Assembly (NCBI GenBank): GCA_030295235.1
Contig: AP026149.1
Span: forward strand, 744,001-808,000
From: Fistulifera solaris
Taxonomy: Eukaryota
DNA length: 64,000 nucleotides
Reading direction: 5' to 3'
Shown here: piece after piece, positions 3,490-53,607 of the stretch
Layout of the letters: each line of letters opens with the position of its first letter
Position numbering within the stretch: position 1 is the stretch's first letter
Notes under the pieces: generated by a model
What the model was told of the DNA's origin: nothing
Seen by the model: the letters and a program-made list of their open reading frames with translations, nothing else
The model's database searches: none
Made by a program: the position numbers and the translations under genes

Positions 3490-6178
3490 ATGAAAAAGTC
3501 TCAAAGAATGAATCAAACGACGGAGGACGACTCCTCGTCGACGATGAACGACAGCAAAGAACCGCTGCCCGCAGAGGCCAATCAACAATCTCTCCACAAA
3601 ACAATAAATTATCTAAGCTTTCAATCGCTAACATCAAAGAAGAAAACGAAAAGGCTATATCCCAGCGATATGACGGACCGCTTTTCCGCCTTTCCATCCT
3701 CTTGGTCGTACGACGTTCACGAAAGGGTCTCTTCGAATCAGAACTTTCCCTGCTGCAACAGCAATCACACGACTGCGATTGCCGCCATAGACACGGAAAA
3801 CGGAACTGAAGCGAAAAGTATGGATAGCGACTCTTCTTCCGGAGATCCGAAGGATTGTATACGAATGTCACAAAACGCCGACAATAGCGCGTGCGAGAAT
3901 CGAGATATTCTTTTTCTGTGCCCAGCAGCTACCGTGTCTGAAAGAAAGGGAGTTGCTACTTTGTCGTTGGAAAGTAGAAGAAAACCCTCTTTGCTGGATA
4001 CATCGACAGATGATGAAGAAGAAGAGTGCCGGACACGGCCGCAAGATAGAATACAGGCACCATGGGATGACGAAGCTTACGGATCTTTTGGTAATATTAG
4101 CCCAGAAGTAACAACGAGAATCAATGATTCAAACCAAAGAAGATCCGGATCCGGTTCGCAGTTAGATGACAGACAAAGGCGGACAGTAATGAGAGGTCTC
4201 GATTACGAAGACAACAACAAAAGACTCTGGGATGATGAATTCATTCTCGAAAACCCTGAAGTGACGGAAGAAGCTATTCGGCAACATTCTATGATGTCGG
4301 TTCCGGGTGCTATTGCGGTTGCGGGCATCAACGCGAGATTCTCTCTGGGCGATTTTTCGGACAATCACACCACGATTTCGATGCAAGAAGCACTGAGACA
4401 AATATCTGCAACTGACGCGAGAAATCTCGGTGATCACGATGAGAGTGTTAATATGGAGTTGACAGAGTTTATTCGGCACCAATCTATGCTGTCAGTACCA
4501 GGCGCGATTGCAGTGGATGGTATTCAAGGAAGGTTCGAAACGGATGCCGACTCGGACAATGAGACAACTACTTCTATGAGACAAGCAAGGAGATGTAGTT
4601 CAAATATGGACCCTAATGATATACGTGTACAGGGAATCTTGGCAGCAGAAGAAACTGATGTGGGAGCTTTTGTATCTGTGTCGGTTATCAGACAAGCTCC
4701 TGTTATCGACGCCGAAGGTATACAGGTAATAAACGTGGAGGATGACGAGCTGGGTGAAACCGACGCTACTTCGATCAAAGTCAATCGCTGGGGAAGCGGA
4801 TTGGTTTTTATGGTGGTCATGGCTGCTCTCGTCTGCATAGTCATCTTTCTTATAGTTGAAAATCAACAACCAGAGGCAAAACCGCGCTTGGCGTCCACGG
4901 AAAGCCCGACGTTCGTACCAACGCTCTCTCCTACCAGCGCGCAGCTGCCAAAGCTCATTGACATACTCAAGTCCATTACCGACGAAAATATTTTACGAGA
5001 CCCTTCTTCGCCGCAGTTCATGGCGGCAGAGTGGCTCTCGCGAGATGTTGCCGAGAAAGACCTGACAGAGGAAAAGCAAATCCAGCGGTATGTTTTAGCG
5101 ATCATGCAATTCGCGTATGGCATCACAGCCGTGTGCGACGAAAAGTCATGTACTTATGACCGATCATCCACCCCGTTTTTAAAACCATATGATGAATGTG
5201 CGTGGGATGGTGTCACATGCAACGATGACGGAAAAGTGACACAAATTGTCTTGTTTGGCCGTCCGGCCGATTCCCTTCTGAATGGCATTGTGAAATGGAA
5301 GCAATCGTCACAAAAGTGGGCATGTTAACCTCTGAAATCAGGACGTTAACTGAGTTGTCGGTGTTGGTCATCGAAGGCTTTGATCTTTCAGGCTCAATCG
5401 ATCATGTTATCAATCCGAGTTTAAAGAATCTTCGAACTATTCGACTCGGGGGAAATTCTCTGACCGGATCACTCCCTGGTCAGATTTGGAGAATCTACCC
5501 GAACTTGGAAGTTTTAGATCTCTCTAACAATGAACTTAGTGGTCCAATACCCCAAAGCATAGGCCGTATACCCTCACTGAGTAAGTCACAATCATCTCTC
5601 GTTCGCGTACAAGGGCTATGTTCATTTTATTCGTTTCTTACAGAGTTATGTGTACAGAGACGTTAAACTTGCGGAAAAACAAAATTACAGGTCAGATCCC
5701 TTCTTTTATTGGGTTACTAACATCCCTTGAATTATTGAATCTCGCCCAAACACTTGTGGAGGGTTCTTTGCCCCGAGAGATTGTAGGATTTTCAGAGACA
5801 TTGCAGACTTTGGATCTCAGCAACACGAAAATGAGCGGCCCACTTCCAGTGGAACTTGAATTATTTACTTCTCTGCGAGCACTTAACTTGAAAGGGTGCG
5901 ACTTTTCCGGGACCATCCCAGAGCTGTCGTGCAGCAACGCTTACATGATTCGATTGAGCGATAATAATTTCTCGGGCACGATTCCTTCCTCCTTGGGCCA
6001 ATGTACCTCGTTGGAGCAACTAAAGTTGCGAAGTAATCCTCAGTTAACGGGGAGAATACCTGAGGCTCTTTGCGGTGACGCCTGGGATTATATTCAGCAG
6101 TTTACAAGTTATAGCGTAGACTGTGGCGTTGAATGTGATTGCTGTGATTTCAACCCACTCTGCGACGATGACTGGTAA
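3490..6178 (+). CDS. Single-pass membrane protein with a disordered N-terminus and C-terminal plant-type LRRs
   Basis: TM GLVFMVVMAALVCIVIFLIV, PT stalk, SPQFMAAEWL, QRYVLA, ECAWDGVTC cap, then LxxLxLxxNxLsGxIP repeats and a CGVECDCC end. Frameshift near 5293; intron 5581-5657. Confidence 0.85.
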
Positions 6179-8134
6179 CAATAAGTGCTGCGACAGGAAT
6201 CACTAGCTATATACATTACCAGTAATAACTTTACTTTTGCATTAATAAAGAATGGTCATGAACAAAGTAGAAGACTCCTTTGACCCATCACCCTTGAACA
6301 GTTATTTCTTTCATTGACTTTCTAATCAAACGAAGCAGACTTGGTGGACATCAAGTCTGTAGTGAATCGCACACATATCTTACAACAGCCACTGCAAAGG
6401 CTAGCAATACAAACATTTTATTCGAAAGCAAGCTGAGTCTTAGCAGAAGTAACAGTTTATCGAATATCGGAAGCACTCCTCATTCTTTATCCAGTGATTT
6501 TCGGAGAGAAGCCCTTATTTCATGACAGCTTTTGTTGGGAAGTAATGTACCGGTAAGGAAAATATGTAATGCGCACCTAAACTCGCAAATGATCTGATAA
6601 AATTATACAAGCAAAGAAGATGGTGAGAGCCATTTTTCTTTGTCAAGAGACAAAGTGTATCATACAGGCACAGCAAGACAAGGAATGAGATTTTGCATAT
6701 CCGAACTTGCTGTTGTAAAGTATGAGCACAGAAAGGTCCTAACTTTCCACTAGACAACCAAAGTCATTCGTCCTTCTAGGGCTTTTATGACCGCATGCGG
6801 AGACTTTGTAAACTCACGCTGCGGTAGAAACCACCCGTCACTACATATTATAGTCATAACACAGCATTCTGCAATATCGCTTACCGTTCACGACACCACA
6901 TGGCTCAAGGAGTGTCGTCCATTCTCGTTCGTTCTATGTTCTATCTTGCTTTCTCTTTCGATTGATCCAAGAGAAAATAGAAATCTATTAGAGCCGCCTG
7001 ATGATTCGGATCCCAGAACGAAGAATAATACATCAACGATTAATAACGATCGTATACTTGGAATCTTATGACGATCACGTGCGCGTCGTCAACAACTTTG
7101 GTACCGGCACGGTACCGGTACCGGTGTGTCAAAGAGCGAGGTCAAGGTTGAGTGTCGGACTGAAAGATTTATTCAGTCATGAGTTGACACGTCATCGGAT
7201 GTCGGAATGGTTCGAAATGACCGTCTAGTTTATTGGGAAAGGATTCTATTCGTGAAAGGAGTCTCGGATGTGTTTCGAACTATATGTTTGGGGATTTGGA
7301 ATCACGGAAGAATCCAGTATGCAATTATGGATGATGACTGTTGCTAGTTGCTAAGGAACATGCAATAATGGAGAATCTGGTGGATTGGCAGAAAGGGCTA
7401 TTTTATCCTAAAGTTGTTATTGGAGAAATGGACTTGGCAAGATCAGATTATGATCAGATCAAGATCAGATCAGAGACCAGTGAAAAGAGGAAAGCAAAAG
7501 TAATCGTAGGAAATCGTCATAATTCTGTAAACGAGTGTTTGGAGCAAAAGTTCGTTGTTTCAATAGTCTTTCGTCTTGGGTGTGTGGAGTCCCCGATAGC
7601 CGAGAGCAGTTACAGACCGCGGTAGAAATTTCAACACTGGTGTTCCCCGTTCACCTACTAGCTAGAGTACAACTTTACGTTTGAACACTTTCATTGCATC
7701 CAATGGACATGGACCGCATTTTTATTAATTTTCACCAAACGGAAGGACGAAAATAGATCACAGCAGACAGCAGCAACGTAAAGTACGAGGTACCTCTGCC
7801 GGTCGCCTTTACAAGCAAAATGAGTCGAATTCAATTTAACTTGATATTCTTCGATGTTTTCGGTGATGCCTCCTAGTGGGCTTTCTCATCATCAAATTGA
7901 CACACGACTACTCATATCTATTTACAGATCGTGTGTGAATGTTTTTTTACTTTTGTTCGTTAACCATCTATCTACCTGCAGGATGTAGTTTCTTGTTTCT
8001 TTTCTATATTCCAGTGTTCGTCCGTACAGTCGTAGAAATGCCCATTGAAAAAGGAGCGGGCATCGCACATTAGTGAGTGATTATGTAAATGAGATGCGTA
8101 CATGGAGTTTGATCTAACAAGGTCCACAGAGTTG

Positions 8135-10449
8135 TCACTTCCCATCATGGCCATTTATAGTAACAGTCCCGGTCCCACTTGGACCGACTTGTGGCGCTGC
8201 TTGATCTGGTGGCGCTGCTTGGACTGGTGGCGCTGCTTGATCTGGTGGCGCTGCTTGGACTGGTGGCGCTGCTTGATCTGGTGGCGCTGCTTGGACTGGT
8301 GGCGCTGCTTGATCTGGTGGCGCTGCTTGGACTGGTGGCGCTGCTTGATCTGGTGGCGCTGCTTGGACTGGTGGCGCTGCTTGGACTGGTGGCGCTGCTT
8401 GGACTGGTGGCGCTGCTTGGTCTGGTGGCGCTTCTTTGACTGGTGGCGCCTTGCAGATTCAGTTAACCATTCTTCCGATCCAGTTAACCATTCTTCCGAT
8501 CCAGTCAACCATTCTTCCGATCCAGTTGTTGATTCGGGCAACCAGTAGTTCGATCCATTGTTCAACCACCCGTCTAAAGATATAACAAACAAAGCCGACA
8601 ATGCAACCTGTTGCTCCGCCAGATATGCCTAAGATAATAATATCCCAGGGTGTTTCTTCCTGTGGATTGGGTGCCGAAGATGTTTTTTCTTCTTTCGACG
8701 GTTCGGAAGGGGGGAGGGGGGCAGCTACTACCGGGACGGCCGTAGGAATCAAGGTTGGCTTGGAAGTCGGGCGCAACGACGGCGGGGTAGTGGGTGCGGC
8801 ACTAGTCACTACCGGAGATCTCGTAGGAGTGGCAGTTACCACATTCATAAAAGGAGGGAGAGTGGGCAAAACCGCGCACCCGCAGCATCCGCGCTCCTGG
8901 TACGTGAGACCTTCCATATTGTTGTTCTCCTTCAAATTCGTGGGTAGTAAGCTCGCAGGCGGACAGAGCGGTAGAACTGCCTGCTGTATGTTTTCCAAGC
9001 ACTCGCTCGCTGGCGAGCATTGCGATCCACCGGTAGCATACCGGATCGCTTCCAGCTCACACGGTGTGGCAGTGAATCTCGGACAAGATTCTATGGATCT
9101 TCTTGCCAACCGACTTATGGCCTCGTCGGCATCTACGAAAGCGCCTATCAAGGGCTTTTGTAGGATGTCGATACCTACCACACCGATGTAGCGCGCTGGT
9201 GTTACGGATCGGTCGTACACGGCAGCCGACACAGTAATGCCGATCTCACCGTTCCAGAACTCGTACGGCTCGGTCCAAGCCGTTCGTTGCGAGTTCTCGG
9301 ACGAGCTCAATCCAGCCGCAAATACCAAGTTGTATCCGGACATTGCTGCGACGATATCTTTGTCACTTTGAATTGGTGCCCAAAACCCGTCCACTAAGCA
9401 CGCCAGTTCGGCCAGAAACGGATGGTTGCTTTCTTCTGTTTCTTCTCCGTTTGTAACCGAGTAGGTGAACAGCTTGAGAGGATTCCCTCTTGCTGTCGCG
9501 TTCTTGATGCGCTCCTCCACCATACCTTTGAGCATGTCCGGACCGTCAGTATCTGATGGTTTTACTATACCGTCGGATATAAAGAGAATTGCGCTGTTGC
9601 AATTCACCGCCACGCCGTTGTCACGCGAATCATCGAGAATGTCGAAGGCCTTTTTCAGACCTCCGTACATGTCGGTACCGTCACCTTTTTCCTCTTTTTC
9701 TATGAGGCTGACAAGGATTTGCTTGTTCTCCTTAGTCGCTGGTAAGAGATACTGGCCTTGATCCGCCAGAGCGTTTACCGCCTTGTCGAAGAAGACGACC
9801 GCTACCCGATCGCTCGGGGTTAGAGTATTGATCACTCTTGCGGCGGCGGCTTTCATCAGACCAAATCGCTGCCCTTGCCCCATAGAACCACTCTTGTCGA
9901 GCACCAGGACGACATTCCTGGCCCCCCGCTTACGCCGCCGTACCAATCCCTAGTGGTACAGTCGTAAGCATCACACACTTTGGAGGGGCGTCCAGGGACA
10001 ATCTGGAACGCTCCCTCCTTTGACCCGAAATAAGCCGCCCACGGCTTCACACCTAACTCATCGTCTTGTTGCAATTGATCCTTGAACCAATCCGCCACTA
10101 CTCTGCCAAGGCAGATGTCCTCAATGAGACGCTGGTCCGTTAGAGTCCTGTTGGGGGCGGCCGATAGATGCTGGTGGTTTCGTCCATCCACCCCGAACAT
10201 CCTTCGCCGCATCCCTCTAAGGTATCATTGGTAAAGGGGCATGTCGGGTTCGGTAGCTCTGAGTCGCACTCGTGGTAGTTTTTACCCTCGCATGCCGCCA
10301 GAGAATCACATCGTATCGTGAATTCATATTCTATTCTGTCGCGTAAAGCTAGGACCTTCCTCTCCCACAAAAAAAGCCGTATCGTCGAAAGAGGTCGTGT
10401 TCAGTCCAATGACGAAGGTTCCTGTTAGTAGGACTGTCAGTAGTTTCAT
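8135..10449 (-). CDS. alpha2delta/CACHD1-like VWA + Cache type I membrane protein, divergent copy 1 (possibly a pseudogene)
   Basis: N-terminus MKLLTVLLTGTFVIG; MIDAS motif LVLDKSGSM; Cache-like WTEPY..G.TVS..VYDR...IGVVGIDI; stalk; TM. Three homopolymer frameshifts (~10370, ~10155, ~9925). In-frame TGA at 8459-8461 precedes a repeat tail whose frame ends at 8135. Confidence 0.8.
8190..8449. repeat. 18-bp tandem repeat, ~14 copies, encoding (Q-A-A-P-P-V/D)n on the minus strand
   Basis: tggtggcgctgcttg(atc/gac) units read directly. Confidence 0.95.
8459..8526. repeat. 21-bp tandem repeat, 3 copies, encoding WIGRMV(N/D)
   Basis: agt(t/c)aaccattcttccgatcc x3. Confidence 0.9.
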
Positions 10450-11587
10450 GTTCTCCCTCTTACTTTTGAAATGAATGAAGAAAGAAGATTTGTTGTAGTG
10501 TTCCGAAGGATAGCATTTTGCTCACCGAAATAGGGTGCGCAGCGCGCATCCACTTGCAACGTGCAACACAGGTATGTCGCCGGTACTGTTCACGGTACTG
10601 TGAATTGACACTCAGAAAAGATTTTGCGTTGCGACCGCGAGCCCCTTGTTAGACACGATTCAGGTTCAGGAGTCCGCAGCTAGGTAATACGGAGCTGGGC
10701 ACTAGGCACCTGTGAACCTGTGAAGATTTGCTCCGTTCCCCGTTCCCGCTCCTTTCATCTTTCATAGTTCAAAATCTTCATAATTAGTCAAAAGCGAATA
10801 ATTAATGCTTTCGTGATTCAGAAATAGCCAATAGCCACTATTGCCCCCAGCCCCACTGGGCCCTGGGACCTGGGACTTGTAACCAGACACCGAGACACCG
10901 TTTTTCTGTCTCACGCGCGTCAAGGTTTACTTTCAAGTCCGTAAGATCTTGACGAATTGTTATGTCGTTTCTCGTTTCGTGATTCATTTTCTCGATAGGT
11001 AGTGTAGTAGAGTGTGGCGTTTCCCACGCCTGTATGATATGCCCTAAGTACAAGCTATCTCAACAAGACTGTACACTGCACTGCAACCATCTTATTTGTT
11101 TGTTTCTAGTTTCGTGATTCATTTTCTTCATTGGTAGTGTAGAATTTCAAAAGACGTGAGATACGCCCTCAGTACAAGCTATTTTGCTGTTTTGCTATTT
11201 CGAACGAAACTGTACTGCAACCGAAGGAGGAACAATAAAAAAATCCTACTTCGTAATATTTATTCCTAATTTCCTAAAGTCAGTACCTTTTTGTCTGGCA
11301 CGTGGCACGTTCGACTTCGGAGTGTCAATTTTCATGTCAACGAGCCAAGATGTTGCCTGTTGCCTGTTGCCTGTTGCCATGCTACAAAAGGTTTGTTCGG
11401 CATACCGACGTGACGCAAGACGCAAAGGAGTATATACGGCGTGCAGTATTGTTTTCCTTTGAAACGACATATATCAAGGAAGACATGGTTTTAAAAGTCC
11501 GAACGGCAAGTATTGGAAGACGGGTTGGTATACATGTTCGAAATCATGGCAACCAATTTCATTGCGGATGTTACGGACGACTTCCTG

Positions 11588-11893
11588 TCAGCAAATTTCG
11601 TGGACGGCCATGGAATCGATAAAAGATATTGGGTCATCCGTTAGATCCATAAAGACAGGAACGTTCTTGGCGGAAGATTGGGAAAATGATTCACTGTATC
11701 GTTGACACAATCGCAACTGAGCACGTCGCAACACATGCCATTCGTCTTCGACCGACTGATTGGTTAATATTTCTTTCATGAGGCGCGTCGCGTCGTGCAG
11801 TGTTGCCAACGCTTCTTTGAATAAATGGCGATGTAGCATCTCCACACCCATGTTGTTGAGCGCCATTGCGGTGCGTGACAAAACGGGTGACAT
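11588..11893 (-). pseudogene. 3'-truncated copy of the 260-aa TPR-like gene
   Basis: Near-identical to the 16558..17340 gene up to ...FIDSM (~11610), then unrelated sequence and an early stop. Confidence 0.8.
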
Positions 11894-13166
11894 GTTTTCA
11901 GAGTCTGAGATTAAAAAAATGTAAATAATATTATGAATCGAATATCGGAAGCACTCCTCATTCTTTATCCAGTGATTTTCGGAGAGAAGCCCTTATTTCA
12001 TGACAGCTTTTATTGGGAAGTAATGTACCGGTGAGGAAAGTGCAATGCGCACCTAAACTCGCAACAGGAAGAGAACAAATAATGATCTGATAAAATTATA
12101 CAAGCAAAGAAGATGGTGAGAGCCATTTTTCTTTGTCAAGAGACAAAGTGTATCATACAGGCACAGCAAGACAAGGAATGAGATTTTGAATATCCGAACT
12201 TGCTGTTGTAAAGTATGAGCACAGAAAGGTCCTAAACTTTCCACTAGACTACCAAAGTCAATCGTCCCTCTAGGGCTTTTATGACCGCATGCGGAGACTT
12301 TGTAAACTCACGCTGCGGTAGAAACCACCCGTCACTACATATTATAGTCATAACACAGCATTCTGCAATATCGCTTACCGTTCAGGACACCACATTGCTC
12401 AAGGAGGGTCGTCCATTCTCGTTCGTTCTATGTTCTATCTTGCTTTCTCTTTCGATTGATCCAAGAGAAAATAGAAATCTATTAGAGCCGCCTGATGACT
12501 ATTACATCAACGATCAATAACGATCGTATACTTGTATTAATAGTATGACGATCACGACATGCAGCAACAAAAAGGATGACGACTGATGACTATCGCGTCG
12601 TCAACAACTTTGGTACCGGTGTTCCCCGTTCACCTACTAGCTAGAGTACAACTTTACGTTTGAACACTTTCATTGCATCCAATGGACATGGACCGCATTT
12701 TTATTAATTTTCACCAAACGGAAGGACGAAAATAGATTACAGCAGACAGCAGCAACGTAAAGTACCAGGTACCTCTGCCGGTCGCCTTAGCAAGCGAAAT
12801 GAGTCGAATTCGATTTAACTTGATATTCTTCGATGTTTTCGGTGATGCCTCCTAGAGTGGGCATTTCTCATCATCAAATTGACACACGACTACTCATATC
12901 TAACTACAGATCGTGTGTGAATCTTTTTTTTACTTTTGTTCGTTAACCATCTATCTACCTGCATGATGTAGTTTCTTGTTTCTTTTCTATATTCCAGTGT
13001 TCGTCCGTACAGTCGTAGAGATGCCCATTGAAAAAAGGTGCGGGCATCGCACATTGGTGTGTGATTATGTAAGTAAGATGCATAAATGGAATTTCATCCA
13101 ATGACGTCCACAGAGATGTCAATTCCCTCCCGACAAGTGCTTTCGCGGCTGATTGACGGAGTTATA

Positions 13167-15177
13167 TTATTTCTTGCCGAACCAGCCATGGAACCAGCTA
13201 TATTGATGGAGATGTATAGTAACAGTCCCAGTCCCAGTCCCACTTGGACCGACTGGTATCGCTTCTTCGACTGGTATCGCTTCTTCGACTGGTATCGCTT
13301 CTTCGATTGGTATCGCTTCTTCGACTGGTGGCGCTTCTTCCTCATCTCTTCTTCCCCGGTTGAAAAATCTGTCCACCAATTTTTCGATCCAACGATCTCT
13401 TATCTCCAAGTAAATGCCAACAACAATGGCAATAAAACCACTTGAACCGACAATTCCGCCAACAATTGCTTTGACTTTTTCCACGGGTGTATCTTCCGAT
13501 GGCGTTGGTGCCGTAGATGATTCATCAGACCCTCCATTCGTCGGTTTTTTCTTCTTTCGACGGTTCGGGAGACGGGGGGACAGCTACTACCGGGACGGCC
13601 GAAACCCCGCTGGTCGGACATTCGAAGGAAACACGTTTTTCGTAAGTAAGCCCTTGCAAAACGGAGTTTGCTTTCAAATCCGTGGGATGCAAGAAGGGCG
13701 CTGCACACGTTGTCGCTTCAAACTGCCCTAAGGTAGAAAAACAAGTTGTGTCCTCCCGGCATATGGATCCTCCCGTAGCGTAGCGGATTGCTTCTCGCTC
13801 ACAAGGGTTGGTGGTAAAAGCTGGACAAGTTTGGCTTGATCGTCTAGCCAAAAGCTTAATGGCCTCGATGAGTTCTTCTTCTGTGTACTTGCCAATCAAG
13901 GCACTTAGTAGTATGTCGACACCTACCACACCTATGAAGCGCGCGGGCGTCACCGTACGGTCGTAGACGCCGACGGACACTGTCGTGCCTCTCCCACCGC
14001 TCCAGAAATCATAGGGCTCCGTCCAGGACGTCCTATTGGAGTTCTCGTCAGTGCCGAAGGTATTGGCAAACGCCTCATAGTAGTTGCCTAAGGCCGCGAT
14101 GATCTTCTCGTCAGAGTCGATCATCGTCCAGAAACCGTCTGCCAAACATGCCAGTTCCATTGGCAGAGAATGGACATCTCCATCTGCCTCGGGGTTTGTT
14201 ATCGAGTAGGTGAAGAGTAACACCGATTTGCCACTGTTACTTTTCGTCTGGTTGAGGCGGTCCATGACCATTGCCTTGAGCTCCTCCGGACCTATGTCCT
14301 CGGTCCGTTTCATCAATCCATCCGTCAAAAAGATGACAGCGGAGTTGCAATCCACCGCCACACCATTATCAATGGACGCATTTAGAATGTCGAAGCCCTT
14401 CTTCAGGCCATCGATCATGTTCGTCCCTTCGCCGACCTCAATCGACTTAATGAAACTGACTAAGGCGTTCTTGTTCTCCTTAGTTGCTTCAAAGAGGAAT
14501 TGGTCATCCTTTGCCAAGACGTTGACCGTCTCGTCAAAGAATACCACTGCAACCCGATCGCTCGGTGTGAGCGTGTTGATGATTCGGATGGTAGCTTCTT
14601 GCATGAGCTCCATACGGCCGTTGGTCCCCATCGATCCAGACTTGTCGAGAACCAATATGATATTCTTCGAGGCGGAACTTCCACCGATATACCAATCCCT
14701 CCCAGTGCAGTCGTAAAGACCGCACTCTTGGGATGGGCGACCAGGAAAAATTTGGAAGGCGCCTTCCTTACTACCGAAGAAGGCGGCCGAAGGACTAACT
14801 CCTAATTCTTTGAAAAAGGGTTTCATATTCTGCGCGAGCCATGGGTCCATCTTGCGACTCATGCAAATATTCTCAATGAAACGATGGTCCGAGGTATTCG
14901 TGTTCGGGGATGCGCGGAACACGCTCGTGGTCTCATCAATCCACCCCAGATTTGCATCGCAAGTCGGATGAGGCAATCGCGAGTCGCACTCATGGAAAGC
15001 TTGGCACCCATCCAACGCGGAGCAGCCTTCTTTGATATATCTTTCGATTTCATCTCGTAATGCGAGAAGGAATTCCTCAAGTTTCTTAGCGACTTGATCG
15101 AACTGCGCCGTGTTGAATCCATTGACTGAGGTAGCCAATGAAATGATGAGGTAAAAGAATGCTCTTTTAAAATTCAT
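13167..15177 (-). CDS. alpha2delta/CACHD1-like VWA + Cache type I membrane protein, copy 2
   Basis: Signal peptide MNFKRAFFYLIISLATSVNG; DKSGS MIDAS motif with FLTDG; WTEPY...FIGVVGVDI; TM AIVGGIVGSSGFIAIVVGIYL; EEAIPV tail. One homopolymer indel near 13548 that is absent from copy 3. Confidence 0.88.
13254..13340. repeat. 18-bp tandem repeat x5 (EEAIPV); counterpart at ~18703-18789
   Basis: tggtatcgcttcttcgac units. Confidence 0.9.
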
Positions 15178-16557
15178 GATCTCCCTCTCGATTTTGAAAT
15201 GAATCAAAGAAAAAGGATTAGTTGGGGTGTTCCGAAGGATAGGATATAGGATAGCATTTTGCTCACCGAAACAGGGTGCGCGGTGCGCATCCACTATCCA
15301 CTTGCAACTTGCAATACAGGTCACAGGTCACAGGTACGTCGCCGGTACTGTTCACCTTCACGGTACTGTGAATTGACACTCAGAAAATATTTTTGCGTCG
15401 CGGGTGCGAGCCCCTTGTTAGACTTCATTTTGTTAGACACGATTCCGGTTCCGGAGCCAAGCACTGAACACTGGGCAATGGGCACTGTGAAGATTTAGAT
15501 TTGCTATTTGCTGCGTTCCCCGTTCCCGCTCCTTTCATAGTCCAGAGATCTTCATAAGTCAAAAGCGAAAAAATCTTTCGTGATTCATAAATAGCCAATA
15601 GCCACTATTGCCCCTAGCCCCACTGTACTGGGACTTGTAACCAGACACCGAGAGACCGTTTTTCTGTCTCACGCACGTCAAGGTTTTGTTGCAAGTCCGT
15701 AAGATCTTGACGGATTGTTATGTCGTTTCTCGTTTCGTGATTCATTTTCTCGATAGATAGGTAGTAGTAGAGTGTGGCGTTTCCAGTTTCCCACGCCTGT
15801 ATGATGTGCCCTAAGTACAAGCTATATCAACAAGACTGTACACTGCACTGCAACCATCTACCATCTTATTTGTTTGTTTGTCGTTTCTCGTTTCGTGATT
15901 CATTTTCTTTGTTGGTCTTTTCCGAAGACGTGAGATACGCCCTCAGTACAAGCTATTTTGCTATTTGGAACAAAACTGTACTGCAGCCGAAGGAGGAACA
16001 TTAAAAAAATCTTACTTCGTAATATTTATTCCTAATTTCCTAAAGTCAGTACCTTTTTGTCTGGCACGTTCGAATTTCGAATTCGGAGTGTCAATTTTCA
16101 TGCTGCTGGTATTTTCGGCTTTTCATCTACTGAGACGGGCCAAATCGAAAATGGAAGTTAGCCGGAACCAAAATTGTAAATTGTGCTTTTTTGGTGCAAT
16201 GTCTGCATGACAGAGAGAAAGGCTCACACTTGACACTTGGCTCTGTGGGCGGCTCTTTCTAAATTATTTATGGTTGGTAGGCGAACGATTCCATCGTCGT
16301 CGTTGATTGCGCTCTCTCCATTCTTCCGTCCCTCCCCGCTTGCTTTTGTAGGACGGATATGTCTTCCCTCATACCTGGTATTGTTGCATGAAGTTCTGTA
16401 TGTTTTCATGATCACTGTTATAAAAAAAGGTCTCATAATTCGCACAAGAAAAAAGTCGACGGTACCAGGTAGACCGAGAGCGTTTCGGATCCTCCGCTGG
16501 AGCGCCTCGACTGCGTATCGCAGAGCCACTGATGAGTCGATGGACTCCAACACACTT

Positions 16558-17340
16558 TCAAGAAAGGATGTTCGTGAGCGTATGTGACGGGAACACATGC
16601 AGAAACGATGGATGGAAAAAAAGTAGAATAATGTCAACAATCAGTGCGCGATGCGCGACCAAAAGACGGTTGATTGTCGGGAATATTGTGGGTATGAAGA
16701 CGCAATCTTGTCGCGCTTTGTTCCCTTCCAATTCCCGCGCTCTGGAAGGGAGCTCTTTCGACAGATGCGACAAATAAGGAATCGTTGAACAGCAGTGCCA
16801 GATGGCCAATTGAATTGTTGCCGCCTGAACGAAAAGGTCGTTCTCTTCTGGTGTGATTTGTTGTAAAAGCCTATCCGCAAGCTTCATCAACGAGGGCATC
16901 GTTGAGTGGTAATGCATAGCAAAGTGATTCGCTAAGCCAGTATTGTACAGCAGAATGGCAGATTGCATGTCAAGATCTTCGTAGCAGGCTGTGTCGATAT
17001 CGCTGATACGAATTGTATACAGCGTAGGATGATGTTGACGACATTGAGTGTTCTTCATGGAATCGATAAAAGATATTGGGTCATCCGTTAGATCCATAAA
17101 GACAGGAACGTTCTTGGCGGAAGATTGGGAAAATGATTCACTGTATCGTTGACACAATCGCAACTGAGCACGTCGCAACATATGCCATTCGTCTTCGACC
17201 GACTGATTGGTTAATATTTCTTTCATGAGGCGCGTCGCGTCGTGCAGTGTTGCCAACGCTTCTTTGAATAAATGGCGATGTAGCATCTCCACACCCATGT
17301 TGTTGAGCGCCATTGCGGTGCGTGACAAAACGGGTGACAT
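16558..17340 (-). CDS. Uncharacterised helical/TPR-like protein, 260 aa
   Basis: Intact ORF with ALNNMGV...EALATLHDA and SAILLYNTGLANH helical motifs. Confidence 0.65.
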   Translation of the reverse strand: MSPVLSRTAMALNNMGVEMLHRHLFKEALATLHDATRLMKEILTNQSVEDEWHMLRRAQLRLCQRYSESFSQSSAKNVPVFMDLTDDPISFIDSMKNTQCRQHHPTLYTIRISDIDTACYEDLDMQSAILLYNTGLANHFAMHYHSTMPSLMKLADRLLQQITPEENDLFVQAATIQLAIWHCCSTIPYLSHLSKELPSRARELEGNKARQDCVFIPTIFPTINRLLVAHRALIVDIILLFFHPSFLHVFPSHTLTNILS

Positions 17341-18615
17341 GTTTTCAGAGTCTGAGATTAAAAAAATGTAAATAATATTATGAATCGAATATCGGAAGCA
17401 CTCCTCATTCTTTATCCAGTGATTTTCGGAGAGAAGCCCTTATTTCATGACAGCTTTTATTGGGAAGTAATGTACCGGTGAGGAAAGTGCAATGCGCACC
17501 TAAACTCGCAACAGGAAGAGAACAAATAATGATCTGATAAAATTATACAAGCAAAGAAGATGGTGAGAGCCATTTTTCTTTGTCAAGAGACAAAGTGTAT
17601 CATACAGGCACAGCAAGACAAGGAATGAGATTTTGCATATCCGAACTTGCTGTTGTAAAGTATGAGCATAGAAAGGTCCTAAACTTTCCACTAGACAACC
17701 AAAGTCATTCGTCCTTCTAGGGCTTTTATGACCGCATGCGGAGACTTTGTAAACTCACGCTGCGGTAGAAACCACCCGTCACTACATATTATAGTCATAA
17801 CTAACACATTCTGCAACATACTTACCGTTCAGGACACCACATTGCTCAAGGAGGGTCGTCCATTCTCGTTCGTTCTATGTTCTATCTTGCTTTCTCTTTC
17901 GATTGATCCAAGAGAAAATAGAAATCTATTAGAGCCGCCTGATGACTATTACATCAACGATCAATAACGATCGTATACTTGTATTAATAGTATGACGATC
18001 ACGACATGCAGCAACAAAAAGGATGACGACTGATGACTATCGCGTCGTCAACAACTTTGGTACCGGTGTTCCCCGTTCACCTACTAGCTAGAGTACAACT
18101 TTACGTTTGAACACTTTCATTGCATCCAATGGACATGGACCGCATTTTTATTAATTTTCACCAAACGGAAGGACGAAAATAGATGACAGCAGACAGCAGC
18201 AACGTAAAGTACCAGGTACCTCTGCCGGTCGCCTTAGCAAGCGAAATGAGTCGAATTCGATTTAACTTGATATTCTTCGATGTTTTCGGTGATGCCTCCT
18301 AGAGTGGGCATTTCTCATCATCAAATTGACACACGACTACTCATATCTAACTACAGATCGTGTGTGAATCTTTTTTTTTACTTTTGTTCGTTAACCATCT
18401 ATCTACCTGCAGGATGTAGTTTCTTGTTTCTTGTCTATATTCCAGTGTTCGTCCGTACAGTCGTAGAGATGCCCATTGAAAAAAAGGTGCGGGCATCGCA
18501 CATTGGTGTGTGATTATGTAAGTAAGATGCATAAATGGAATTTCATCCAATGACGTCCACAGAGATGTCAATTCCCTCCCGACAAGTGCTTTCGCGGCTG
18601 ATTGACGGAGTTATA

Positions 18616-20624
18616 TTATTTCTTGCCGAACCAGCCATGGAACCAGCTATATTGATGGAGATGTATAGTAACAGTCCCAGTCCCAGTCCCACTTGGACCG
18701 ACTGGTATCGCTTCATCGACTGGTATCGCTTCTTCGACTGGTATCGCTTCTTCGATTGGTATCGCTTCTTCGACTGGTGGCGCTTCTTCCTCATCTCTTC
18801 TTCCCCGGTTGAAAAATCTGTCCACCAATTTTTCGATCCAACGATCTCTTATCTCCAAGTAAATGCCAACAACAATGGCAATAAAACCACTTGAACCGAC
18901 AATTCCGCCAACAATTGCTTTGACTTTTTCCACGGGTGTATCTTCCGATGGCGTTGGTGCCGTAGATGATTCATCAGACCCTCCATTCGTCGGTTTTTCT
19001 TCTTTCGACGGTTCGGGAGACGGGGGGACAGCTACTACCGGGACGGCCGAAACCCCGCTGGTCGGACATTCGAAGGAAACACGTTTTTCGTAAGTAAGCC
19101 CTTGCAAAACGGAGTTTGCTTTCAAATCCGTGGGATGCAAGAAGGGCGCTGCACACGTTGTCGCTTCAAACTGCCCTAAGGTAGAAAAACAAGTTGTGTC
19201 CTCCCGGCATATGGATGCTCCCGTAGCGTAGCGGATTGCCTCTCGCTCACAAGGGTTGGTGGTAAAAGCTGGACAAGTTTGGCTTGATCGTCTAGCCAAA
19301 AGCTTAATGGCCTCGATGAGTTCTTCTTCTGTGTACTTGCCAATCAAGGCACTTAGTAGTATGTCGACACCTACCACACCTATGAAGCGCGCGGGCGTCA
19401 CCGTACGGTCGTAGACGCCCACGGACACTGTCGTGCCTCTCCCTCCGCTCCAATAATCATAGGGCTCCGTCCAGGACGTCCTATTGGAGTTCTCGTCAGT
19501 GCCGAAGGTATTGGCAAACGCCTCATAGTAGTTGCCTAAGGCCGCGATGATCTTCTCGTCAGAGTCGATCATCGTCCAGAAACCGTCTGCCAAACATGCC
19601 AGTTCCATTGGTAGAGAATGGACATCTCCATCTGCCTCGGGGTTTGTTATCGAGTAGGTGAAGAGTAACACCGATTTGCCACTGTTACTTTTCGTCTGGT
19701 TGAGGCGGTCCATGACCATTGCCTTGAGCTCCTCCGGACCTATGTCCTCGGTCCGTTTCATCAATCCATCCGTCAAAAGATGACAGCGGAGTTGCAATCC
19801 ACCGCCACACCATTATCAATGGACGCATTTAGAATGTCGAAGCCCTTCTTCAGGCCATCGATCATGTTCGTCCCTTCGCCGACCTCAATCGACTTAATGA
19901 AACTGACTAAGGCGTTCTTGTTCTCCTTAGTTGCTTCAAAGAGGAATTGGTCATCCTTTGCCAAGACGTTGACCGTCTCGTCAAAGAATACCACTGCAAC
20001 CCGATCGCTCGGTGTGAGCGTGTTGATGATTCGGATGGTAGCTTCTTGCATGAGCTCCATACGGCCGTTGGTCCCCATCGATCCAGACTTGTCGAGAACC
20101 AATATGATATTCTTCGAGGCGGAACTTCCACCGATATACCAATCCCTCCCAGTGCAGTCGTAAAGACCGCACTCTTGGGATGGGCGACCAGGAAAAATTT
20201 GGAAGGCGCCTTCCTTACTACCGAAGAAGGCGGCCGAAGGACTAACTCCTAATTCTTTGAAAAAGGGTTTCATATTCTGCGCGAGCCATGGGTCCATCTT
20301 GCGACTCATGCAAATATTCTCAATGAAACGATGGTCCGAGGTATTCGTGTTCGGGGATGCGCGGAACACGCTCGTGGTCTCATCAATCCACCCCAGATTT
20401 GCATCGCAAGTCGGATGAGGCAATCGCGAGTCGCACTCATGGAAAGCTTGGCACCCATCCAACGCGGAGCAGCCTTCTTTGATATATCTTTCGATTTCAT
20501 CTCGTAATGCGAGAAGGAATTCCTCAAGTTTCTTAGCGACTTGATCGAACTGCGCCGTGTTGAATCCATTGACTGAGGTAGCCAATGAAATGATGAGGTA
20601 AAAGAATGCTCTTTTAAAATTCAT
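18616..20624 (-). CDS. alpha2delta/CACHD1-like VWA + Cache type I membrane protein, copy 3
   Basis: Near-identical to copy 2. Single homopolymer indel at ~19776 (4 A versus 5 A in copy 2). Confidence 0.88.
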
Positions 20625-22001
20625 GATCTCCCTCTCGATTTTGAAATGAATCAAAGAAAAAGGATTAGTTGGGGTGTTCCGAAGGATAGGATATAGGATA
20701 GCATTTTGCTCACCGAAACAGGGTGCGCGGTGCGCATCCACTATCCACTTGCAACTTGCAATACAGGTCACAGGTCACAGGTACGTCGCCGGTACTGTTC
20801 ACCTTCACGGTACTGTGAATTGACACTCAGAAAATATTTTTGCGTCGCGGGTGCGAGCCCCTTGTTAGACTTCATTTTGTTAGACACGATTCCGGTTCCG
20901 GAGCCAAGCACTGAACACTGGGCAATGGGCACTGTGAAGATTTAGATTTGCTATTTGCTGCGTTCCCCGTTCCCGCTCCTTTCATAGTCCAGAGATCTTC
21001 ATAAGTCAAAAGCGAAAAAATCTTTCGTGATTCATAAATAGCCAATAGCCACTATTGCCCCTAGCCCCACTGTACTGGGACTTGTAACCAGACACCGAGA
21101 CACCGTTTTTCTGTCTCACGCACGTCAAGGTTTTGTTGCAAGTCCGTAAGATCTTGACGGATTGTTATGTCGTTTCTCGTTTCGTGATTCATTTTCTCGA
21201 TAGATAGGTAGTAGAGTGTGGCGTTTCCAGTTTCCCACGCCTGTATGATATGCCCTAAGTACAAGCTATATCAACAAGACTGTACACTGCACTGCAACCA
21301 TCTACCATCTTATTTGTTTGTTTGTCGTTTCTCGTTTCGTGATTCATTTTCTTTGTTGGTCTTTTCCGAAGACGTGAGATACGCCCTCAGTACAAGCTAT
21401 TTTGCTATTTGGAACAAAACTGTACTGCAACCGAAGGAGGAACATTAAAAAAATCTTACTTCGTAATATTTATTCCTAATTTCCTAAAGTCAGTACCTTT
21501 TTGTCTGGCACGTTCGAATTTCGAATTCGGAGTGTCAATTTTCATGCTGCTGGTATTTTCGGCTTTTCATCTACTGAGACGGGCTAAATCGAAAATGGAA
21601 GTTAGCCGGAACCAAAATTGTAAATTGTGCTTTTTTTGGTGCAATGTCTGCATGACAGAGAGAAAGGCTCACACTTGACACTTGGCTCTGTGGGCGGCTC
21701 TTTCTAAATTATTTATGGTTGGTAGGCGAACGATTCCATCGTCGTCGTTGATTGCGCTCTCTCCATTCTTCCGTCCCTCCCCGCTTGCTTTTGTAGGACG
21801 GATATGTCTTCCTCATACCTGGTATTGTTGCATGAAGTTCTGTATGTTTTCATGATCACTGTTATAAAAAAAGGTCTCATAATTCGCACAAGAAAAAAGT
21901 CGACGGTACCAGGTAGACCGAGAGCGTTTCGGATCCTCCGCTGGAGCGCCTCGACTGCGTATCGCAGAGCCACTGATGAGTCGATGGACTCCAACACACT
22001 T

Positions 22002-22784
22002 TCAAGAAAGGATGTTCGTGAGCGTATGTGACGGGAACACATGCAGAAACGATGGATGGAAAAAAAGTAGAATAATGTCAACAATCAGTGCGCGATGCGC
22101 GACCAAAAGACGGTTGATTGTCGGGAATATTGTGGGTATGAAGACGCAATCTTGTCGCGCTTTGTTCCCTTCCAATTCCCGTGCTCTGGAAGGGAGCTCT
22201 TTCGACAAATGCGATAAATAAGGAATCGTTGAACAGCAGTGCCAAATGGCCAACTGAATTGTTGCCGCCTGAACGAAAAGGTCGTTCTCTTCTGGAGTGA
22301 TTTGTTGTAAAAGCCTATCCGCAAGCTTCATCAACGAGGGCATCGTTGAGTGGTAATGCATTGCAAAGTGATTCGCTAAGCCAGTATTGTACAGCAGAAT
22401 GGCAGACTGCATGTCAAGATCTTCGTAGCAGGCTGTGTCGATATCGCTGATACGAATTGTATACAGCGTAGGATGATGTTGACGACATTGAGTGTTCTTC
22501 ATGGAATCGATAAAAGATATTGGGTCATCCGTTAGATCCATAAAGACAGGAACGTTCTTGGCGGAAGATTGGGAAAATGATTCACTGTATCGTTGACACA
22601 ATCGCAACTGAGCACGTCGCAACACATGCCATTCGTCTTCGACCGACTGATTGGTTAATATTTCTTTCATGAGGCGCGTCGCGTCGTGCAGTGTTGCCAA
22701 CGCATCTTTGAATAAATGGCGATGTAGCATCTCCACACCCATGTTGTTGAGCGCCATTGCGGTGCGTGACAAAACGGGTGACAT
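22002..22784 (-). CDS. Uncharacterised helical/TPR-like protein, 260 aa (the copy retaining its native upstream region)
   Basis: Intact ORF, two amino-acid differences from 16558..17340. Confidence 0.7.
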   Translation of the reverse strand: MSPVLSRTAMALNNMGVEMLHRHLFKDALATLHDATRLMKEILTNQSVEDEWHVLRRAQLRLCQRYSESFSQSSAKNVPVFMDLTDDPISFIDSMKNTQCRQHHPTLYTIRISDIDTACYEDLDMQSAILLYNTGLANHFAMHYHSTMPSLMKLADRLLQQITPEENDLFVQAATIQLAIWHCCSTIPYLSHLSKELPSRARELEGNKARQDCVFIPTIFPTINRLLVAHRALIVDIILLFFHPSFLHVFPSHTLTNILS

Positions 22785-24379
22785 GTTTTCAGAGTCAGAG
22801 ATTAAAAAATGTAAATAATATTATGAAGAAGCGAGAGTTGCTTGGGGCTAGGCAGTTTTGATTATTCATTCAGGATGACTGGTCAATGAGTATCGATGTG
22901 AGAAGCGCGACATGCGTTTTCTTCCTTCCTTCGTTTCTTCATCAACGAAACACGAAACGCCGAAGTCCGAAGTGGGAGAGATAGAACGAGAAACAAGATC
23001 AAAGAACTCCAACACGGTTATTCCTTTTGGTTTCCTCAGAATTCCACAAGGCCCTCTCGAAATCCGGATCAAAAAAATACGCACGAAAACTACATAGTAG
23101 TGGCATATGCCTGAGATCCGGAGAACATATTTGACGGAAATAGAGTCTTTTCTGCTTCGCGGGCCCGCAGACTACGATTAACGATTATCGATACGATGAT
23201 CGATGATTATAGTTCGACAAATATCGATATTTCGATTTTTACCGAATATCAATATCGTATTATACGATATAATAACCGATATTAATATCGGCGACCGTCT
23301 GTCTTCGCCCGCAAAATACAGACATTTTAGCGTAAATGCCTCAAATCCGTCTGTCAGGCGTACGAATATCGATAAATATCGATATTGGGAAAAATGGCTC
23401 TGATATAATACGTTATTATAACGTGAATATCGGTATTCGTTATTTGTTATTTTGGAGTGTGTCGAACTATGTCGATGATCGATGATGCCGCGGAAAACGC
23501 GGAAAAGCAAAGGGATTTTGTACACGCAAGCAGAACTAAAAATCGGAACTAGGGGCGAGAGAACAAAAACCAAAAGTTCGTTGTCGAAGTTCGGAGTTTC
23601 GTTGGTTTCTGTATCGTGAATTATGTAATATGTTTCGTCCTATTGAATCCGAAAAAAACAGAAGAGAAAAAAAGCCAAAAAGTCAGTTGTCCCTCTAGAG
23701 CCCCAACACTAAAAACGAAAATGTGCATTGAAGTGAAGTCTCGAGTCAGTCTCGAGGTCCACCTTTTCCTTTTACCTGGCTTTCAGCTTCGCAACATTGA
23801 AGAAGCCAAATTTTCACAAGAGAACGGAATATGACTATCATTTTGGATGATCGGCAATGGTTGGAGAGCGTTGTTCGTTATTCTGCAAGCGCTTTTGTCC
23901 TCGGAAGTCGGGATTTGAGTTCAAGCTATCTGCTGGGGGTATCATCACTCTAGAGTGAAGGCTTGGCGCCTTTGCTTCCTAGGTACCCCTATTATTCAGC
24001 TCTTTATCTTCCTTCTGCTCTTGGTTTAAACTATCGCCAGCAAATTTGTAGCCCATGGCAAAGATTTGGTCGCTTATAGTTGCTTTTTGGAGCAAAGAAA
24101 CTAAATACTGCAGATGGCTTCAGACAAAAACGTACAGGTTTCCATTTACATCATCGCCGACCTTCTTCTAAACGATTTAACCAAAGTGCATGATAGACAC
24201 CGACACTAAAAAAAAATTCAATTCTTTCGATGCGACACCACAATCTTTGTCAAGCTCATGCTGTTAAAAATGCTGGAAATAAGTTGACATCGCTTATGCG
24301 ATTCAAGTAAACCTTGGATCGTTCATCTTCTGGGTATTATGAACATGATGAGAGTTCGAACAATTCATGTTGAAACCAT

Positions 24380-43000: not shown

Positions 43001-43935
43001 TAGGTCTGTTTGGACAAGTCGATCGAACGGTTGGCGATTTGTTTTTGGTGAAGGGGCAAGTCATGGGCGTCGGTCGCATGTGCACCATGATGATGGCTCA
43101 GAAGAAGTACATCCGCTATGGCGGCTTGACAAATGGCATCAGCATTTACAATTGCGCAGCACCAAACCGTCACCGAGAAGGCGGAAACTTATTCAGTTTA
43201 CACGATGGGTTACACCGTATGCCCATATCTGCTGCCAAAGCAAGCGTGCGCGGAGATTGGATGGTGACCGGTAGCTTGGATTCAACAATTCGCGTTTGGC
43301 AACTCACATCCGATAAGCTTCATTATCAAGCCGTCCTCTCGGGGAATGACGGTTACCCGATAACTTGTCTCGATTTGTGCACTGAGTTTAGCATGATCGT
43401 GAGTGGTTCAGAAAAAGGTCGCGTTATTGTTTGGGATCTGCGCTCGTTGAGTTTCGTCCGCCACTTGCCAACTCTTGAAGGAAAACCCGTTCACAGTGTT
43501 TCCATCAACAACAAGAACGGGAATATTTTGAGTCTCGCAGGGTCACAGCTTATGCTAACCACTATCAATGGCAAAGTACTTGGCGAACGAAAGTCATTTT
43601 CTAGCCCTCCTACCTACGCTGTGGCAACCGATTGTCCAGAATGGATGGAAAACGGCGTGGTAGCAGTGACAGGACATGCTTGTGGTAAAGTGTGCTTATG
43701 GAGCTTAAATATTCAAGCGCGTGACTTTATCTTGCGTCACACGCTTGAAGACAGTCCACACAAGAATGCCATTACTTGCGTGCGAGTAGCTGGGGATACG
43801 CGACAGGATCATGTTTTGGTCGGAGATTCCAGCGGCAGGATGTCTTGCTGGAAAGTCTTGCAACTGGAAATGGTGGACGCGAATGAGTTGGAAGTCATCA
43901 CGGAACAAATCATTAATGATCGGCCTTACATTTAA
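34075..43935 (+). CDS. Large BEACH-domain protein (ConA-like, PH, BEACH, WD40; WDFY3/LvsA/SPIRRIG-like)
   Basis: WKLDMTEG..RQRRRL, RRYQLQQSGLEFF, MTNFDFLMHLNSLAGRSFNDLTQYPVFPWII, DVRELIPEFF, WVDLVFGYKQ, NFGQTP, then WD40 repeats. First exon MWKNLF... splices in frame over intron 34155-34254. About six apparent frameshifts split the ORF. Confidence 0.92.
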
Positions 43936-52087: not shown

Positions 52088-52769
52088 GGAGCCGCCGTCG
52101 CTTTTGAACTCAACAAGATGATGATCGAGATGCGCTTCCACACATAGTCAAAGCCGTCAAAAATGAGAAATAATATTCTCAAAGCGACTACCTGGTACGA
52201 CCGACGACGCAGAGAAGAAAGGAACGAGAGAAGAGAGAAGAGAGAAACGAGAGAAAAAGGCCCAACGTGAATATTATGTCTCTGAAAACTGAAAACATAC
52301 GTAGTAAGTAGTAAGTGATTGGACACTGGACAAGCCATTGGTCACTGGGTTCTCTGAATATGAATCGTAATGTACTACTGTTCTTCAACTAGTTCGTTGT
52401 AGGAAAATAGAAAGCAGGATTGCGGATTGCGGATTGCGGGTCATTGCGTTCCACATCGTGAATCATGATGACTCATGACTCACGACTCATGTTTTCTCTC
52501 TCATCACCTCATCGCTCATCGAGCAGGACCACCTTGCCTCGAATGAAAAATGAAAGTGGTTTCTAGGTTTTCTGGTAGTTTCTGAAGTCAAAGGATGAGT
52601 GCATCATAGATCCTGCTCCTCTAAACATAATTCAAATGAAGTACAACAGTTGCTCCTCTCACCAAGTTTGCAGCACAAATAATACAAAGTATGGAGGTAA
52701 GGTTAGGCATTTAAGGCAATAAATAAAATTGACAAAAGGGGCCTGACGTGAATGATGCAAGTGAAAAAC

Positions 52770-53385: not shown

Positions 53386-53607
53386 TATGCGGACGGATGC
53401 ATATTGTGCTGCGCATTGGCTTCAACCGATTTTTCTGAGCGCAACAAATGCGTCATGCGTTTAATATCGCACATCCTCGTCTCTTTTACGAACATAACAT
53501 TCGAATACTCCGGTTCGTCGAAATCACAGGCGAAGTACTCGAGCGAGGGGAAACAGATACCTGGTAATTCTTGATATTCTTTCGAAAAAAGTCGAGGCGG
53601 ACGAAGA

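Follow-up and report, generated by a model that had tools for sequence, protein, structure and literature searches.

Two ancient lineages of alpha2delta-like VWA/Cache genes in a young tandem array of Fistulifera solaris, chromosome 13L

The window analysed here is a 64-kb stretch of chromosome 13, subgenome L, of the allodiploid diatom Fistulifera solaris, and all coordinates are positions within it. It contains a tandem array of three units, each carrying one gene for a type I membrane protein with VWA and Cache regions, and all genes of the array are encoded on the minus strand. The array is young and combines two ancient paralog lineages. Unit 1 carries the type 1 VWA gene, while units 2 and 3 each carry a type 2 gene (Table 1). 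The coding bodies of the two types are far older than the DNA that surrounds them. An initial annotation of the window, made from the letters alone, had recognised two units. Both are real, and a third unit, 99.2% identical to unit 2, completes the array.

Old coding bodies in young flanks

Units 1 and 2 were compared by self-BLAST and by three-way alignment. Three flanking blocks align between them, namely block A, block B with the 3' untranslated region (UTR) and downstream flank, and block C with the upstream region and 5'UTR. Identity is 90.7% over 642 columns in block A (6459-7079 versus 11937-12556), 93.8% over 513 columns in block B (7636-8143 versus 12615-13127), and 79.4% over 970 columns in block C (10445-11336 versus 15173-16102), the values for A and C with gaps included. 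The coding body (9024-10059 versus 13766-14808) reaches only 66.0% over 1059 columns, and DNA identity between blocks B and C drops to 55-70%. When only substitutions are counted, units 1 and 2 differ at 17 of 599 sites in block A, 30 of 508 in block B, 92 of 846 in block C, and one of 328 in segment E, where the neighbouring gene X begins. The body of the coding sequence differs at 601 of 1548 sites (39%). The initial annotation was therefore right that the coding sequence is far more diverged than its flanks. Its description of the flanks as alike almost base for base does not hold for block C, which has ~7-11% substitutions (~7% by pairwise alignment, up to 10.9%) and many indels.

The contrast is one of age. 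Among four-fold degenerate sites of the ectodomain, 79 of 127 differ (62%), against 139 of 1953 flank sites (Fisher p 1.4e-50). Flank divergence is thus far below synonymous divergence, and the age contrast stands. By the Nei-Gojobori method over 637 codons, types 1 and 2 have a proportion of synonymous differences (pS) of 0.58, a synonymous distance (dS) of 1.10, which is saturated, a nonsynonymous distance (dN) of 0.40, and a dN/dS of 0.36; the dS between units 2 and 3 is 0.011. Ectodomain windows have a dN/dS of ~0.1-0.4 with no replacement excess. The ratio is near 1 in the transmembrane (TM) region, and the proportion of nonsynonymous differences (pN) exceeds pS in codon windows 550-600 and 675-700. 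Types 1 and 2 are ancient paralogs under purifying selection. Their proteins are only ~52% identical, in agreement with the early impression of half identity, and the peptides quoted for that impression are found in the translations. The proposal of old divergent paralogs or alleles in homogenised flanks is likewise borne out by the dS and by the 62% at four-fold sites, against 3-11% in the flanks. The GC content at third codon positions is alike in the two types (0.533 in type 1 and 0.547 in type 2), hence there is no sign of a foreign origin.

All internal unit boundaries, at 11937 and 17384, are the same junction between segment E and block A, which shows that the flanks are related by duplication. 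The near-identical block inside the coding sequence (AVPVVA..EPSKEEK), pointed out from the start, proved to be an island flanked on both sides by old diverged segments. BLAST aligns 8682-8742 with 13544-13601 at 88.5% over 61 columns. Taken as 70 nucleotides (nt), the island has 64 matches, a score equalled by none of 5000 site shuffles and by one of 5000 codon shuffles. At least one short exchanged tract lies inside the coding sequence. Stretches of intermediate identity occur exactly at the edges of the old segments, that is, upstream of the ATG, past the ancestral stop, and in the tail (Table 1). The flank blocks are unequal in divergence (chi-square 35.8, p 1.7e-8). The island, the intermediate edges, and the uneven flanks together indicate that exchange between units was repeated, at different times. 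A repeat search found no direct or inverted repeat pair and no recombination-site-like repeats bracketing either coding sequence.

Units 2 and 3 are near-copies, with 99.17% identity over 5781 columns by self-BLAST (11609-17384 versus 17056-22827). They have 51 differing alignment columns, seven of which are single-base run-length differences. The differences are clustered at 12189-12373, 13769-14164, and 16738-16963. X1 is a public sequencing run that behaves as genomic DNA, with 51.6 M letters of contigs and intergenic DNA covered. Its contig over unit 2 has the letters of unit 3 at 13769, 13792, and 14164, but not at adjoining variable sites, which could reflect small exchanges, a third haplotype, or assembly noise.

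Table 1. Features of the array, with positions in the window and identity of unit 1 segments to unit 2
Feature	Positions	Strand	Identity to unit 2	Partners and remarks
Three-unit tandem array, units ~5.4 kb	6459..22827	-		self-BLAST and three-way MAFFT alignment
Unit 1	6459-11936	-		carries type 1 VWA gene
Unit 2	11937-17383	-		carries type 2 VWA gene
Unit 3	17384-22827	-		carries type 2 VWA gene
VWA-1, type 1 (FisN_13Lu031, 663 amino acids)	8459..10449	-		signal peptide, VWA/Cache ectodomain, TM helix
VWA-1 TGA stop	8459-8461	-		annotated stop of FisN_13Lu031
Pro-rich 18-nt-repeat tail remnant	8138..8458	-		in frame behind VWA-1 TGA; homologous to VWA-2 coding tail
VWA-2a, type 2 (669 amino acids)	13167..15177	-		once extra A at 13545 is removed
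VWA-2b, type 2	18616..20624	-		one A missing from window at 19774
Block A of unit 1	6459..7079	-		11937-12556, 17384-18003
Block B of unit 1, 3'UTR and downstream flank	7636..8137	-	~97% up to 8071	12615-13166, 18062-18615
Tail			~82-95%
Last 50 nt before ancestral stop			78%
TM region			~56%
Near-identical island inside coding sequence	8682..8742	-		13544-13601, 18994-19049
Ectodomain			55-70%
50 nt upstream of ATG			86%
Block C of unit 1, upstream region and 5'UTR	10450..11336	-	~93%	15178-16102, 20625-21546; many indels
Segment E			99.7%	start of gene X
Segment D' of unit 1	11337..11608	.		replaces 3' two-thirds of gene X; three-way alignment, tblastn of X
Gene X, truncated copy	11588-11893			unit 1; first 95 codons only
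Gene X, reading frame of 260 amino acids	16558..17340	-		between units; second copy 22002-22784
Dispersed repeat, 512 nt	7125..7636	.		unit 1 only; solo-long-terminal-repeat-like, TG...CA ends

The VWA genes and their protein family

Each unit encodes a protein of ~660-670 amino acids (aa) with a signal peptide, a VWA domain, a Cys-rich stalk, one TM helix, and a Pro-rich tail of 18-nt repeats. In the window the reading frames are broken at five sites, all of them in homopolymers, namely 10369, 10152, and 9921 in unit 1, 13545 in unit 2, and 19774 in unit 3. Compensating indels at all five are present in contigs of public sequencing runs. Specifically, X1 contigs carry the three corrections of unit 1, the X1 contig 13277-15386 omits one base at 13545, and a contig of X2 adds an A at 19774; X2-X4 are public runs that behave as RNA, as seen from a spliced joint and from poly-T at a loose end (18358). 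As the run contigs restore the frames, the frameshifts in all three VWA genes are homopolymer assembly errors, and all three genes are open. The reading of unit 1 as a pseudogene because of its three frameshifts is ruled out by the same contigs. With its three indels corrected, the unit 1 product is identical to P0002, which is FisN_13Lu031. Window and contigs also disagree on homopolymer length at 12568, 16366, 18371, and 8709. At 8709 the X1 contig drops one C of a C6 run that is C6 in both the window and P0002; the loss would shift the unit 1 frame before the TM helix and is probably a homopolymer error as well. Errors of this kind fit a long-read assembly, and they may be connected with the nanopore assembly of F. 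solaris described in the accessible part of a preprint (10.1101/2021.11.10.468027).

The TGA at 8459 is genuine, and type 1 loses its Pro-rich tail through it. It stands where the 21-nt repeat elsewhere has TGG, and X1 record 2 (8390-9101) carries no other letters along its length, the TGA included. The X2-X4 contigs fall on type 2 and none is listed on the unit 1 coding sequence (bins 7752-11255), which is uninformative on expression. The window assembly is unfit for calling pseudogenes without polishing. The corrected gene models and the tracing of the frameshifts to the assembly are a practical, smaller gain of this analysis.

The diatom proteins are related to alpha2delta and CACHD1 of animals. 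A profile of the diatom family matches alpha2delta-1 with an E value of 6.8e-35 and CACHD1 with 1.1e-28 over the N-terminal Cache/VWA region, and the alpha2delta-1 match extends over residues 154-474 and takes in sequence to either side of the VWA domain. Pfam VWA_2 scores 50-58 bits (cut-off 27), and MCP-like_PDC_1 scores 19 bits, under its cut-off of 27. The DxSxS motif of the metal ion-dependent adhesion site (MIDAS) is intact, reads LDKSGSM in both types, and aligns to DVSGSV of alpha2delta-1; the remaining MIDAS elements appear in the translations as GTNM/GTDM and LTDG/ISDG. An AlphaFold model (pLDDT 75.7, pTM 0.74) was compared with known structures by Foldseek, which matched it to alpha2delta-1 structures with E values of ~1e-20 (8if4_A, 4.3e-21, TMq 0.60). 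The alignments have 433-471 columns, with query-normalised scores (TMq) of 0.55-0.60 and target-normalised scores (TMt) of 0.33-0.38. The profile match and the model together point to a Cache (PDC) fold with an inserted VWA domain. The second double-Cache module and the C-terminal delta part of alpha2delta are lacking. The diatom ectodomain has ~550 aa whereas the animal one has ~1000, and the match covers only alpha2delta residues ~154-502. Unlike alpha2delta and CACHD1, the diatom protein is anchored by a TM helix that is followed by the Pro-rich repeat tail. It is alpha2delta-like, not a full member of the alpha2delta family.

The diatom family comprises 17 protein hits and 49 metagenome loci. 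The latter, obtained by a scan with the family alignment, all have at most 38% identity except two short matches of 44% and 48%, and there is no close relative among them. A literature search for diatom, von Willebrand, and cache domain returned bacterial papers only, and among the literature matches listed none by title or abstract concerned a diatom alpha2delta-like family. In its accessible part, a survey from 2014 reports alpha2delta homologs to be absent outside animals (PMC4202318). The alpha2delta/CACHD1-like family, which is present and expanded in diatoms, was, judging from that part, missed by the survey.

In a tree of 19 family members, units 2 and 3 form a pair that is sister to the group of unit 1, FisN_18Hu091, and P0005, and FisN_10Hh399/P0003 come next. 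The path from unit 1 to unit 2 is 1.01 changes per site, against 0.136 for this last pair (P0003/P0004), which is taken to be homoeologous although P0003 has no locus tag. Hence, types 1 and 2 split long before the parental genomes diverged. The unit 1 ectodomain is 83% identical (438/527) to FisN_18Hu091, which is on another chromosome (18H). Presumed homoeolog pairs (n=3) have 85-90% identity; only FisN_31Hh069/31Lh069 are named as homoeologs, and the remaining two involve proteins that have no locus tag. The "u" tags of FisN_13Lu031 and FisN_18Hu091 are read here as non-homoeologous, i.e. as having no syntenic partner, which would follow from the H/L and homoeolog counts in the accessible part of an earlier report (PMC5935921). 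The P0002 cluster in the protein collection has one member, and the C-terminal 89 aa of unit 1 found themselves as sole relative. Among the 17 protein hits there is no type 2 protein beyond the window's own.

Origin of the mosaic

The mosaic was probably made by non-allelic recombination, meaning gene conversion and unequal crossing-over in the array, possibly with an ectopic paralog. Both gene conversion as the agent and the direction of exchange are what we infer from the pattern of identities. Exchange between units would keep, or would have made, the promoter/5'UTR, 3'UTR, cytoplasmic tail, and intergenic DNA alike. The ectodomain and TM segments, with ~60% DNA identity, would be too diverged to recombine and so would stay apart, and they are probably also shielded by selection for distinct function. 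Two variants of this process are about equally probable. In variant (a), types 1 and 2 would be long-standing neighbours whose flanks were repeatedly homogenised. In variant (b), a type 2 unit would have been duplicated recently, and a type 1 gene of other location would have taken the place of its coding body. Variant (a) draws support from the edges of intermediate identity, from the island in the coding sequence, and from the precedent of the opsin genes, as far as the accessible part of that study describes it (PMC3213168). Variant (b) is favoured by the single shared junction, by the equal divergence of blocks A and B, and by the existence elsewhere of a type 1 relative with no L partner; the ectodomain identity of 83% to that relative, FisN_18Hu091, is near the presumed homoeolog range of 85-90%.

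Several points weigh against non-allelic recombination in one or the other variant. Homologous recombination at ~60-65% identity is mechanistically hard, and homogenisation in place needs ~2 kb of non-coding DNA to be kept alike while synonymous sites saturate. With an optimised alignment, the heterogeneity of the flanks is only moderate (~2.9% for A and B, ~7% for C). A donor for the transplant did not turn up, as the protein collection holds no second protein with at least 90% identity to unit 1. Moreover, the type 1 relative of the H subgenome is on chromosome 18 and not beside the gene X homoeolog on 13H, which argues against long-term adjacency.

A different history, which we consider unlikely, begins with two ancient idiomorph-like alleles under balancing selection in an outcrossing ancestor, their flanks homogenised by allelic recombination. 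An illegitimate exchange in a heterozygote would then have put both alleles in tandem as a permanent heterozygosity, and the type 2 unit would have been duplicated later. This history would account just as well for the sharp boundaries, which lie within ~50-60 nt of the start and the ancestral stop, and it would suit the intermediate identity beside the old segments, which is the way linked divergence classically falls off around a target of balancing selection. It is also in line with the one E|A junction common to the units and with the equal divergence of A and B, ~2.9%, as after one capture event. However, dN/dS is 0.36 and the ectodomain has no replacement excess, the family has no known recognition role, and a type 1 gene of its own is present on 18H with 83% ectodomain identity, for which paralogy is the simpler explanation. 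That types 1 and 2 are ancient balanced haplotypes of one receptor locus, idiomorph-like and similar in kind to mating-type or allorecognition loci, and the tandem a captured heterozygote, is distinctly improbable. If true, the ectodomain and TM segments would have been kept apart since before the two parental species arose, the locus would be the first of its kind on an alpha2delta-like VWA/Cache receptor, and raphid diatoms would have in it a candidate system for cell-cell recognition. The initial annotation had drawn a link to self/non-self, mating, adhesion, or pathogen-recognition loci, and this link found no support. No recombination-site-like repeats bracket the coding sequences, and the family is alpha2delta/CACHD1-like.

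That the type 1 gene was stitched into repeated flanks by the assembly, making unit 1 a chimera, is highly improbable. The near-identical 5.4-kb repeats are indeed hard to assemble, homopolymer-length errors are present (unit 1 has three, units 2 and 3 have one apiece, and there are more in the flanks), and X1 may stem from the same strain and not be fully independent. Yet the unit 1 flanks are not copies of unit 2, as they differ at 139 of 1953 sites, have many indels, and contain a repeat insertion of their own. X1 record 4 (10174-10618) crosses the start codon in unit 1-specific sequence with no other letters, and none are listed for 7637-8143. The X1 contig depth is 7-24 on type 1 and 33 on type 2, roughly double, as a single type 1 copy and two type 2 copies would give. 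There is scarcely any more reason to ascribe the likeness of the flanks to extreme functional constraint on regulatory or RNA elements instead of youth, and we give this almost no credence. The flanks do hold a 3'UTR, a promoter/5'UTR, and a spliced exon, but the ~2 kb at 93-97% identity include an intron and intergenic DNA and tolerate indels and a 512-nt insertion, no Rfam family was found in 5500-23500, and ultraconservation on this scale beside saturated synonymous sites would be unprecedented. Strong diversifying selection, which had been offered at the outset as the alternative to old paralogs, would have split the coding sequences after a recent duplication while the flanks were kept young, and its probability is close to nil. 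The two C-terminal windows with pN above pS and the TM ratio near 1 would agree with it. The high C-terminal ratios fall within tandem repeats, in which a single change is scored repeatedly, and in part behind the unit 1 stop. The four-fold ectodomain sites are near saturation (79/127), which selection on the protein cannot cause, and the ectodomain dN/dS is 0.1-0.4. With synonymous sites saturated and replacements under-represented, diversifying selection is not the cause of the divergence.

Flanking features and comparison with known systems

The flanks had been called non-coding, and that holds in part only, since they contain a 3'UTR, a spliced exon with its intron, a dispersed repeat, and a second gene between the units. 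In block A, a minus-strand transcript has an exon and a GT..AG intron of 291 nt (6594-6884), and the splice joint 6593/6885, with ends CT..AC, is present in X2 and X4 contigs. The spliced minus-strand transcript, 6254-7053, runs from block A out into unique DNA without a long open reading frame (ORF). The counterpart of block A in the inner units sits upstream of gene X. The 3'UTR in block B is ~258 nt long, with poly(A) at ~18358 in unit 3 (VWA-2b; the X2 poly-T loose end). The dispersed repeat at 7125-7636 is absent from units 2 and 3 in the alignment. Over it, the X1 contig has a depth of 406 versus ~15-30 nearby, 12 other letters, and loose ends at both edges. The repeat also occurs in the RNA-like runs X2-X4.

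Gene X matched no Pfam family. Its closest protein is FisN_13Hu013, with 88% identity, on the homoeologous chromosome. It belongs to a small Fistulifera-centred family with FisN_13Hu013 and FisN_31Hh069/31Lh069, and its array copies lack the family's conserved C-terminal end "...LLPH.A.SAAAA". In units 2 and 3 the place of segment D' is taken by 953 nt to which the unit 1 segment cannot be aligned. An Rfam scan of 5500-23500 gave no matches. The window as a whole is eukaryotic, as judged from its fragmented ORFs and an ordinary 77-nt GT-AG intron in a trigger-factor gene. Outside the array, a large BEACH/WD40 gene (BEACH domain E value 2e-114) extends over five ORFs at 34187-43935, and its ORF junctions are either introns or more homopolymer errors. 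There are three more internal tandem-repeat regions, 49936-50528, 52761-53395, and 56930-58374, two of them inside long ORFs with no Pfam hits (49481-50977 on the minus strand and 56018-58573 on the plus strand). These regions may encode repetitive secreted or wall proteins.

Dissimilar cores within near-identical flanks, with sharp boundaries, are known from yeast MAT/HML/HMR, from fungal mating-type idiomorphs, and from exon 2, as against the introns, of the major histocompatibility complex (MHC). The array shares this arrangement with the MAT, idiomorph, and MHC loci. It differs in having no bracketing repeats and no replacement excess, and in showing no sign of silent and active copies, of recombination enhancers, or of allelic segregation. 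Another likeness is offered by the primate long-/middle-wavelength (L/M) opsin array. In gibbon L/M opsin arrays, exons are more divergent than introns through gene conversion and selection, according to the accessible part of the study (PMC3213168). As described there, the opsins too are tandem paralogs in which non-coding DNA is more alike than the decisive coding parts, conversion tracts are discrete, and trees of flank and coding sequence disagree. The opsin exons diverge by a few percent and the genes are near-identical in the remainder, whereas the coding bodies here have a dS above 1 and ~52% protein identity. Because the coding bodies are saturated, conversion no longer crosses them, and a transplant of the coding body is an equally good reading.

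Tandem arrays resolved only by long reads have been described in F. solaris itself, for LPAAT and enoyl-ACP reductase, in the accessible part of the preprint cited above (10.1101/2021.11.10.468027), which does not mention the present locus. Like this array, they are, by that account, species-specific and absent or different on the homoeologous chromosome. They repeat one gene, whereas this array has two ancient lineages in shared flanks. The array provides a tractable site for the study of non-allelic recombination and of promoter/UTR sharing in an allodiploid diatom, and it warns that the ages of duplicates estimated from flanks and from coding sequence can differ more than tenfold. Set beside the known systems, the locus does not represent a novel kind of system but is a striking single-locus case of an evolutionary process already known. 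It shows, in unusually clean and extreme form, non-coding DNA that is much younger than the genes enclosed by it, with saturated synonymous sites against flanks 3-7% diverged, and with boundaries that lie within ~60 nt of the start and stop codons.

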